A DNA stretch of 64,000 nt from a bacterium (lineage in GTDB: Bacteria; UBA8248). Numbering within the stretch: the first letter of the stretch is position 1; every line of letters starts with the position of its first letter. The translations under genes and the position numbers were made by a program. The stretch covers positions 5,074 through 69,073 of the forward strand of contig JAVEPB010000049.1 in the NCBI GenBank assembly GCA_030922375.1, in the 5' to 3' direction. A model generated the notes under the pieces. The model was not told the origin of the DNA and ran no database searches. It saw nothing but the letters and a program-made list of their open reading frames with translations. Below, piece by piece: positions 52,455 through 61,489 of the stretch.

Positions 52455-52520
52455 TTGCACTTCACCTAAAAAAATCGATAATACAGGTCATTGCATTTCA
52501 CCTAAAATAATCGATACGGA
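52455..52520 (+). promoter_or_regulatory. Two 26-nt direct repeats TTGCA(C/T)TTCACCTAAAA(A/T)AATCGATA immediately upstream of the nitrile hydratase operon
   Basis: Units at 52455..52480 and 52491..52516, 36 nt start to start, with 2 mismatches. The second unit ends 11 nt before ATG 52528. Confidence 0.5.
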
Positions 52521-52527
52521 GGCGCGC

Positions 52528-53154
52528 ATGAGCGAGAAGACCCACGATGGGCACACCGAGCTTACGGATAACGAACTTCGGGTCCGGGCGCTCGAGTCGT
52601 TGCTCACCGAAAGAGGCTTGGTGGACGCGGACGCTCTCAATGAACTTATCGACACCTACGAGACCAAGATCGGCCCGCGCAACGGGTTCAAGGTGGTCGC
52701 CCGCGCATGGACGGACCCCGAATTCAAGAAACGGCTGCTCGAGGACGGCAATGCGGCCCTCGCCGAGATGGGCTACGAAGGGCGGCAGGGCGAAATCATG
52801 GTGGTGCTGGAGAACACGCCCAAGATTCACAACATGGTGGTCTGCACCCTTTGCTCGTGCTATCCGTGGCCGGTGCTGGGCCTTCCTCCCGCCTGGTATA
52901 AATCGTTCCCCTACCGCTCACGCGCGGTGATCGACCCCCGAGGCGTTTTAAAGGAGTTCGGCCTCGAGCTCGGGGACGATGTCGATATCCGCGTGTGGGA
53001 CAGCACCTCGGAGACGCGGTTTATCGTCCTTCCCGAGCGCCCGGCCGGGACCGAGGACATGACCGAAGAGGAACTGGTCGAGATCGTCAACCGCAACTCC
53101 CTCATAGGAACGGCCCTGGTCGAGGCCCCGAGCGCGATAGGAGATCAGACATGA
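52528..53154 (+). CDS. nthA: Nitrile hydratase alpha subunit, cobalt-type active site
   Basis: [22 protein letters not shown] (CTLCSC is the Co-type motif). ATG 52528 with GGAGG upstream. Confidence 0.9.
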
Positions 53155-53462
53155 ACGGCGTGCACGATATGGGCGGCATGCACGGGATGGGGCCCATCGT
53201 CCTCGAAGAGAACGAGCCCATTTTCCACGCGGAGTGGGAGAAGCGCATATTCGCTCTCTCGCGCGCCATGGGCTTTCAGGATCGGTGGAACATCGATATG
53301 GCTCGCCATGCCCGCGAGCGCATCCCGCCTCACATCTATATGGCGTCGACTTATTACGAGCGGTTTTTGTTGAGCCTTGAGACCCTGTTGGTTGAAGGTG
53401 AGTACTTTACGCAAGAGGAAATCGACGAGCGCGTGGCCAAGCTCGCTAGGGAGGAAGCCTGA
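53151..53462 (+). CDS. nthB: Nitrile hydratase beta subunit, N-terminal half as a separate gene
   Basis: [36 protein letters not shown]...[13 protein letters not shown]. The ATG overlaps the alpha stop (ATGA). It ends at TGA 53460..53462. Confidence 0.85.
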
Positions 53463-53812
53463 TGCCTTTGCTCACGAAGGAGATGGTCGCGGGGATGCTT
53501 CGGCAGGGGGAGGGTTTTAAGGTAGACACCGACATTCCGCCCAGGTTTTCGGTCGGCGATCGCATCCGGGCCCGCGATATCAATCCCGAGGGCCATACAC
53601 GTCTTCCGCGCTATGCCCGCGGCCGGCAGGGAGTGATCGATAAAGACTATGGCGTTTTCGTCTTCCCCGACACCATGGCCCGGGGCGAGGGGAAAAACCC
53701 CCAGCACCTATACAGCGTCCGCTTCATGTTCAGCGAACTTTGGGGGCCCGACGCACGGGCCGGGGATTCCGTTTATGTCGACATGTGGGACGACTACATG
53801 GACCCCGCATGA
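53462..53812 (+). CDS. nthB: Nitrile hydratase beta subunit, C-terminal half as a separate gene
   Basis: FSVGDRIRARDINPEGHTRLPRYARGRQGVIDKDYGVFVFPD...LYSVRFMFSELWG. The ATG overlaps the preceding TGA by 1 nt (TGATG), and GGGAGGA lies 7 nt upstream. Confidence 0.85.
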   Translation: MPLLTKEMVAGMLRQGEGFKVDTDIPPRFSVGDRIRARDINPEGHTRLPRYARGRQGVIDKDYGVFVFPDTMARGEGKNPQHLYSVRFMFSELWGPDARAGDSVYVDMWDDYMDPA

Positions 53813-53839
53813 ACCCATACAATGAGTCCATGAGCGAGA

Positions 53840-54214
53840 GTGGCGATGAATGACCCGAAGGATTTTGATGCGCTTCCCTCAATGCCGCGGGATGAGGAGG
53901 GACCCGTCTTCCGCGAGCCCTGGGAGGCGCAGGCCTTTTCCATGACCTTGATGCTCTACGAGCAGGGGCACTTCTCCTGGAGAGAATGGACCGAATGCCT
54001 GGGCGCCGAGATCACGGCGGCCGAAGAGCGAGGAGACCCCGACCTGGGAGATACTTATTACCTTCATTGGCTTGCCGCCATCGAAAAAATGGTCGCCGAA
54101 AAAGGCATCGTGGAGGCCGATACCCTACGCCGCCGAAAAGACGAGTGGGATGTCGCCGCACGGACGACTCCTCACGGCCAGCCGATATTGCTTGATCACC
54201 AAAAAGAACAGTAG
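53840..54214 (+). CDS. Nitrile hydratase accessory (activator) protein
   Basis: GPVFREPWEAQAFSMTLMLYEQGHFSWREW...YYLHWLAAIEKMV, the typical activator pattern. Confidence 0.8.
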   Translation: MAMNDPKDFDALPSMPRDEEGPVFREPWEAQAFSMTLMLYEQGHFSWREWTECLGAEITAAEERGDPDLGDTYYLHWLAAIEKMVAEKGIVEADTLRRRKDEWDVAARTTPHGQPILLDHQKEQ

Positions 54215-60877: not shown

Positions 60878-61489
60878 TTAAGCGCTCACCAGAAAAACCA
60901 CCCCTGCCGTAGCGATGAACCCACCAACGGCTTCGCGCCAATGCATGCCGGAAATGCCCGCCCGGCGTATGACGCTTCCCGCCCCTGAGCCCATTACGAG
61001 CAGGATCGATGTCGCCAGGATAAATCCCGCGCTATAAAGCGCTGGCATAACGGCTTGCGGAATTTCCGCGCCATGAGCGTAACCGTGAAAAACGGCGAAT
61101 AAGCCGGCCATTCCTAGACCTTTCACCACACCCGTATTCCACGACAGCGCAATGACAATACCTACAACAAGAACCGAAAGAGCAATTCCCGCTTCCGCAA
61201 AGGGCAGCGATATTCCGGTCATCCCCGCCACACCGCCTACAAGCATCATTGCGGCAAACAACGCGGGCAGTTTCCAGGCCGTGTCTTTTCCCATCTGCCC
61301 GGCCCAGAAGCCCACGCCCAGCATGACCAGCACATGATCGAGACCGCCGAGGGGGTGAAGGAACCCCGCGCCAAACCCCGCGCCATGGGCACCGAAGGTA
61401 TGCGCCTCCGATACGCCGGCAAACCCCAGAACAGCCAAAGCCGAAAAAGCCGCGGTACAATATTTTCGAATCATTCCTTTCGTCTCCAT
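60878..61489 (-). CDS. hupE: HupE/UreJ-family Ni/Co transporter
   Basis: HPLGGLDHVLVMLGVGFWAG and FHGYAHG. 6 TM helices and a signal peptide. Confidence 0.85.
   Translation of the reverse strand: METKGMIRKYCTAAFSALAVLGFAGVSEAHTFGAHGAGFGAGFLHPLGGLDHVLVMLGVGFWAGQMGKDTAWKLPALFAAMMLVGGVAGMTGISLPFAEAGIALSVLVVGIVIALSWNTGVVKGLGMAGLFAVFHGYAHGAEIPQAVMPALYSAGFILATSILLVMGSGAGSVIRRAGISGMHWREAVGGFIATAGVVFLVSA

Follow-up and report, generated by a model that had tools for sequence, protein, structure and literature searches.

Nitrile hydratases (NHases) are industrial biocatalysts for acrylamide and nicotinamide, and their subunit architecture, the role of their activators and the fusion of their subunits are active topics of enzyme engineering. 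In the cobalt-type NHase of Pseudomonas putida NRRL-18668 (PDB 3qxe and 3qz5) the beta subunit is one polypeptide. A division of beta is known from ScNHase of Streptomyces canus CGMCC 13662, a cobalt-type enzyme whose beta subunit consists of an N-terminal and a C-terminal half of about 10.4 and 11.4 kDa. This enzyme is active as AnhD2E2A2 (PMC7329996), therefore a split beta can work. In ToyJKL of Streptomyces rimosus, a three-subunit cobalt-type NHase, the beta function resides on two small proteins; its genes belong to a cluster for a deazapurine antibiotic, and toyocamycin is its substrate (Nelp et al. 2014, as cited in PMC7329996). The NHase superfamily also includes the thiocyanate hydrolase (SCNase) of Thiobacillus thioparus (PDB 2dd4), in which the counterpart of beta is split by nature. 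Here we describe an NHase operon with a divided beta subunit from a 64,000-nucleotide stretch of contig JAVEPB010000049.1 (assembly GCA_030922375.1, positions 5,074 to 69,073 of the forward strand), which is called the window in the following and to which all positions refer. In all likelihood, this operon encodes a classical cobalt-type NHase in which beta has been fissioned exactly at the linker between its two domains.

The alpha subunit (208 amino acids) is encoded on the + strand at 52528..53154, from ATG 52528 to the stop codon TGA 53152-53154, and this start is consistent with the orthologous loci L001, L007, L008 and L010, which are discussed below. The protein matches PF02979 with 291.9 bits, passes the NHase-alpha equivalog model TIGR01323 (306.7 bits at a cut-off of 249.85) and is 63% identical to the alpha chain of the P. 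putida enzyme (3qxe_A). The motif VCTLCSC, from which a preliminary description of this DNA had concluded that alpha is of the cobalt type, is found at residues 105-111 and contains the cobalt-type metal site C106, C109, S110 and C111.

The gene for the N-terminal half of beta, betaN (103 amino acids; PF21006, 130.7 bits; positions 1-99 of TIGR03888), follows at 53151..53462 on the + strand. Its ATG 53151 overlaps the stop codon of alpha as ATGA (a reading from 53152 begins one base later), and the protein ends in ...AREEA in front of the stop codon TGA 53460-53462. The C-terminal half, betaC (116 amino acids; PF02211, 113.4 bits; positions 117-226 of TIGR03888), is encoded at 53462..53812 on the same strand and contains GHTRLPRYARGRQGVI; its ATG 53462-53464 overlaps the betaN stop as TGATG and its own stop codon is TGA 53810-53812. 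Since a TAG at 53447-53449 closes the betaC frame, which opens four codons 5' of the ATG, ATG 53462 is the only possible start of betaC. A Shine-Dalgarno (SD)-like GGGAGGA can be read from the sequence at 53449..53455 (+ strand), inside the last betaN codons, and GGAGG is separated from the betaC ATG by a spacer of 7 nucleotides, which is a canonical spacing. The assembled letters across the junction, in the region 53440-53475, are GGGAGGAAGCCTGATG. This agrees with the preliminary description, which had reported the end of betaN, the start of betaC, the TGATG overlap and the GGGAGGA 7 nucleotides upstream.

Beta is consequently not a single polypeptide of about 220 amino acids but is spread over two genes in different frames, and each half misses the whole-protein cut-off of TIGR03888 (121.8 and 129.3 bits, cut-off 152.2). 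Since 103 and 116 residues add up to 219 amino acids and are colinear with the 219-residue beta subunit of P. putida (3qxe), the two halves reproduce a normal beta with nothing missing. In the PDB search, betaN residues 1-92 align to residues 1-92 of 3qxe_B with 45% identity and betaC residues 2-116 to residues 104-219 with 50% identity. The cut is located in the linker between the two Pfam domains, which reads AKLAREEA-stop/MPLLT in the window. A charged tail of the type A(K/E)LA(K/R)E(E/A)A, which at the same time encodes the SD sequence, is common to the split loci, and most fused loci carry a Pro/Gly-rich linker (PAPGSPKATPPLT). Most of the other split loci that were inspected have a purine-rich aGGAGg at this position; L035, L056 and L108 show it weakly or not at all.

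A one-nucleotide insertion or deletion, introduced during sequencing or assembly, could break a normal beta gene in the same manner. The genome is a metagenome-assembled genome (MAG) of 272 contigs with 7.5% contamination, and at the junction a single nucleotide distinguishes the window from the fused ortholog L010. Moreover, in the metagenome locus L046 (3118-3766) the beta gene breaks off halfway through betaN, with 76 amino acids followed by a change of frame. The sister loci L038 and L053 have a fused beta, and the break in L046 resembles a pseudogene or an error of sequencing, in contrast to the clean splits. Against such an artefact in the window stands the recurrence of the junction. 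The identical TGATG and the four-gene layout are found in a congeneric MAG labelled Nitrospinota, L001 (= L009), whose proteins are 95-98% identical to those of the window (synonymous divergence, dS, 0.1-0.37), as well as in L007 (genus g2) and L008 (genus g7) of the same family, and these independent assemblies show many synonymous differences. The split layout also occurs in other phyla, namely in a Rhodospirillaceae MAG and two Gammaproteobacteria MAGs (L002-L004), and on the metagenome contigs L035, L056 and L108, with betaN proteins of 103-106 amino acids and TGATG or ATGA overlaps. Separately called split genes lie on contigs of 1.28 Mb, 516 kb, 107 kb and 25 kb. A cluster search restricted to proteins of 57-180 amino acids yielded 531 clusters (90% clustering) that match betaN, and most of the best 120 have 102-109 amino acids. 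In a representative library, betaN matches of about 103 and about 220 amino acids, together with many fragments, are interleaved at 50-60% identity, a pattern that alone does not decide the matter. In addition, stop codon, start codon and SD sequence are laid out like a designed coupled junction.

The alternative that beta is a decaying pseudogene, and that the operon no longer yields an active enzyme, has to be considered because gene decay most often begins with a frameshift in a coding region. However, both halves are open and of full length across 46-97% identity in many lineages, and all catalytic support residues are retained. The ratio of nonsynonymous to synonymous substitution rates (dN/dS) lies at 0.06-0.31 in alpha as well as in both beta halves, which indicates purifying selection on all three genes. 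Because the junction recurs in independent assemblies and dN/dS is low, an artefact is extremely unlikely and a decaying pseudogene hardly conceivable. The sequence comparisons rather point to a genuine, heritable gene fission, which purifying selection has maintained in three or more genera. The same recurrence, in independent assemblies, in other phyla and on long contigs, bears out the preliminary description in its view that the split is genuine and not a sequencing frameshift. Judged from these matches, the split-beta variant with alpha as the first gene is common in environmental bacteria.

Next to two separately translated halves, the junction might also be read as a site of programmed -1 frameshifting, where a shift before the TGA yields a full-length fused beta and GGGAGGA acts as the stimulator. 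Indeed, betaC is in the -1 frame relative to betaN, the internal SD sequence lies just 5' of the stop codon, as at dnaX-type sites, and the product would match the fused L010 protein almost residue for residue. Nevertheless, a slippery heptamer of the X XXY YYZ type is neither present nor conserved at the junction in the nine split loci; the only recurring elements there are the overlap of stop and start codon and, in the majority of loci, the SD sequence. The stability of the junction RNA does not exceed that of shuffled sequence (z = 0.87), a palindrome is absent, betaC has an ATG of its own at canonical spacing, and neither the ATGA overlap in L056 nor the gap of 4 nucleotides in L119 fits a common frameshift site. 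We therefore consider frameshifting very improbable, and termination followed by re-initiation, that is translational coupling, appears to be the best reading of the junction.

For the origin of the split, a metagenome scan with the alpha alignment provided 80 loci with 61-73% identity in alpha. The informative loci among them all show the order alpha-beta(-accessory); 60 have a fused beta, three a clean split, and one is the artefact-like L046. Trees were calculated from alpha alone and from concatenated alpha and beta after removal of the junction columns. The window clusters with L001, L007 and L008 (97-98% support in the Shimodaira-Hasegawa-like approximate likelihood ratio test, SH-aLRT), and the sister of this group (99%) is L010, a locus with fused beta on a one-contig genome of the same family (G040:C1, about 176.3-177.0 kb). 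The trees accordingly place the operon inside the classical clade of cobalt-type enzymes with fused beta and the order alpha-beta-accessory. The preliminary description had stated that the genuine split would be called into question if the enzyme fell within ordinary two-subunit NHases and the split was unique to this assembly; the enzyme does fall there, but the split is not unique.

L010 and the split genes differ by one extra C in the SD region (aaggaCggaaacCTGATGcc in L010 vs agggaggaagcCTGATGcc in the split genes). This nucleotide sets the two halves in frame (...LAKDGNLMPLF...), and the internal methionine is kept. Within the linker, the split state thus lies one nucleotide away from the fused sister ortholog, and the cut is probably reversed by single-nucleotide changes. 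The fusion in L010 may reflect a real re-fusion event or else a long-read assembly error of the homopolymer type. The best trees require at least three changes between the split and the fused state. In the approximately unbiased (AU) test, a single clade of the clean splits was rejected (p = 7e-7), whereas a single clade of the splits together with L010 was not (p = 0.13). From these trees, either a single old fission may have travelled between phyla and been reversed in L010, or the same linker may have been cut several times.

The residues which support catalysis are distributed over both halves. R52, E56 and Y68 as well as the pocket positions I48, A51 and F72 are located on betaN, and R47 and Y112 on betaC correspond to betaR149 and betaY215 of P. 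putida. The roles as claw-stabilising arginine and catalytic tyrosine have been assigned to beta residues before (PMC12646544). R52, E56 and Y68 of betaN and R47 of betaC are invariant in nine split and 56 fused sequences.

The preliminary description had suggested a kinship with ToyJKL or SCNase and, along with it, a non-standard substrate. Such a distinct three-subunit relative would fit the fact that the known three-subunit members SCNase, ToyJKL and ScNHase have special substrates (PMC7329996 and established knowledge), and the pocket positions 48, 51 and 72 are occupied by I, A and F instead of L, F and W as in P. putida. The comparisons do not support this suggestion. Alpha does not reach the SCNase-gamma model TIGR03887 (188.2 bits at a cut-off of 291.45), the nearest solved structures are those of the P. 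putida enzyme, and the sister ortholog L010 has a fused beta. In the PDB search, alpha has 150-157 bits with SCNase gamma and 284 bits with P. putida alpha, betaN and betaC stop at 27 and 31 bits with the beta and alpha chains of SCNase, and SCNase ranks last in all three PDB searches (alpha, betaN and betaC). There are no genes for 7-deazapurine biosynthesis near the operon, the context by which ToyJKL was compared, and the gene order and the accessory gene are unlike those of ScNHase (PMC7329996). F72 is shared with the fused sister L010, and fused enzymes show the same breadth of variation at positions 48 and 51. The pocket stays within the range of fused relatives, the split itself carries no substrate signal, and a functionally distinct three-subunit enzyme with a non-standard substrate is quite improbable.

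If the operon encodes a classical cobalt-type NHase with a fissioned beta, its expression and function can be pictured as follows. The ATGA and TGATG overlaps and the SD sequence in the end of betaN would couple translation, so that the three chains are made in roughly equal amounts. By analogy with AnhD2E2A2 of ScNHase (PMC7329996), they would assemble to an alpha2(betaN-betaC)2 enzyme that equals the usual alpha2beta2. The cobalt would be held in the VCTLCSC claw of alpha, loaded by the accessory protein of the P14K type, as its family membership suggests. BetaN would supply R52, E56 and Y68 together with the pocket positions 48, 51 and 72, and betaC the second claw-stabilising arginine, R47, the equivalent of R149/150. 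The enzyme would add water to a nitrile to form the amide, which would then be hydrolysed by an unlinked amidase.

Some points speak against this picture or limit it. Position 72 is Phe in the clade of the window and Trp in most relatives, which may make the specificity somewhat different from that in P. putida. Among the lineages compared, no amidase, transporter or regulator is conserved beside the operon, therefore the genomic context gives no clue to the substrate. Finally, the stoichiometry, the assembly and the requirement for the accessory protein in the lineage of the window are inferred.

BetaN (103 amino acids) and the accessory protein (122 amino acids) are paralogs of the same size class with one common fold, PF21006. 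One could assume that the fission made betaN an exchangeable module and that the split is an adaptive route to modular maturation or specificity and not a neutral frameshift. If this were true, betaN would during maturation simply take the place of the accessory protein on an alpha-betaC core that already holds cobalt, and lineages of the L120/L121 type could build enzymes with alternative pockets, since positions 48, 51 and 72 are on betaN. We regard this idea as unlikely. As a separate observation, L120 and L121 (5001-6400 each) have tandem betaN paralogs of 103 amino acids each, which are 57% identical. Their gene order is alpha-betaN-betaN'-betaC-accessory, only the second betaN overlaps betaC as TGATG, and a DDE transposase adjoins the operon of this type.

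The fourth gene of the operon begins at GTG 53840 or ATG 53846 and ends at 54214 on the + strand. It encodes an NHase accessory or activator protein of the P14K type, which is a homolog of betaN; the protein passes the cut-off of TIGR03889 (95.7 bits, cut-off 46) and shows a weaker match to PF21006 (50.1 bits). This match downstream of betaC is in line with the activator gene announced at this place in the preliminary description. The four genes alpha, betaN, betaC and accessory are arranged head to tail on the + strand. The operon is free-standing, with 574 nucleotides of non-coding DNA upstream and 487 nucleotides downstream, and the promoter and terminator scan gave nothing informative on its flanks; no sigma-70-like promoter was called in the 574-nucleotide gap upstream of alpha. 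A search for riboswitches and other Rfam families around the operon returned no credible match, only a sub-threshold match to a microRNA model. The guanine-cytosine composition gives no sign of recent transfer. Two 26-nucleotide direct repeats, TTGCACTTCACCTAAAAAAATCGATA and TTGCATTTCACCTAAAATAATCGATA, lie 36 nucleotides apart at 52455-52516, and the second one ends 11 nucleotides 5' of the alpha start codon. This pair may be an operator for some regulator.

The neighbouring genes encode a cytoplasmic molybdenum oxidoreductase, a cupin, a DgaE-like pyridoxal phosphate enzyme, an ABC ATPase, peptidases and urease accessory proteins together with a permease of the HupE/UreJ family. The other lineages compared share none of them beside their operons. 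The genome has only one NHase alpha. It carries 13 amidase-signature matches on other contigs, and judging from these genes the amide product is plausibly hydrolysed by unlinked amidases. The HupE/UreJ permease (PF04955, 161 bits; 60878-61489, - strand) is located beside the urease accessory genes, 6.7 kb from the cobalt-type NHase. It probably carries nickel for urease; a role in the supply of cobalt is speculative.

The clean cut after beta residue 103 indicates that nature tolerates a division of beta even in a classical, activator-dependent lineage. Designs of modular or circularly rearranged NHases could adopt this cut site directly, and L010 on the one side and L007, L008 and the window on the other form a pair for testing the contribution of the covalent link. 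There is also a risk for annotation, since each half remains below the beta equivalog cut-off and such operons can be scored as lacking an intact beta or as pseudogenes. In regard to ecology, the operon adds a step from nitrile to amide to an oxygen-minimum-zone lineage labelled Nitrospinota, which has urease accessory genes and many amidases.

Among the known systems, the cobalt-type NHase of P. putida NRRL-18668 is the solved structure that gives the top match to each of the three chains. It shares with the operon of the window the motif VCTLCSC, the order alpha-beta-accessory (P14K), a total beta length of 219 amino acids and the residues betaR52, E56, Y68, R149 and Y215. The difference lies in beta, which in the window is cut after residue 103 and encoded by two coupled genes.

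ScNHase (AnhD-AnhE-AnhA) resembles the window in having a cobalt-type site and a beta made of an N-terminal and a C-terminal half. Compared by layout only, it differs in its order betaN-betaC-alpha and in lacking an activator (PMC7329996), whereas the window is alpha-first and has a P14K-type accessory gene. A second NHase type, likewise split and with the order betaN-betaC-alpha, was observed in congeners and relatives (L011-L014 in G049, G037, G050 and G048). It is devoid of a linker segment of about 20 residues, no accessory gene was seen within 1.5 kb, and its layout resembles that of ScNHase. The alpha subunits of L011-L014 are 49-53% identical to that of the window and form a long, fully supported branch apart in the tree. 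Since they fall outside the clade of the window, the two splits are separate events. Most genomes of the phylum have a third type (L016-L034), in which a gene for a betaC-like protein of 95 amino acids directly precedes alpha; this alpha has a His-rich N-terminal extension of about 260 amino acids, and no betaN was detected. The gene upstream of the third-type NHase in L020 looks like an amidohydrolase. Furthermore, 28 short stretches of G024, a genome of the phylum, match the NHase-alpha model at no more than positions 114-165; they are presumably NHLP-type precursors of ribosomally synthesised and post-translationally modified peptides (RiPPs).

ToyJKL was compared by description and context, not by sequence, and the genes of its cluster are absent from the flanks of the operon in the window. 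With SCNase, the window shares the superfamily and the division of beta; the gamma chain of SCNase corresponds to NHase alpha, and its beta and alpha chains to the two halves of NHase beta. Literature searches found no description or bench study of an alpha-first split-beta NHase that bears an activator. Split-beta NHases as such are known; new here are the lineage, the layout and a pair of fused and split enzymes that lie one nucleotide apart.

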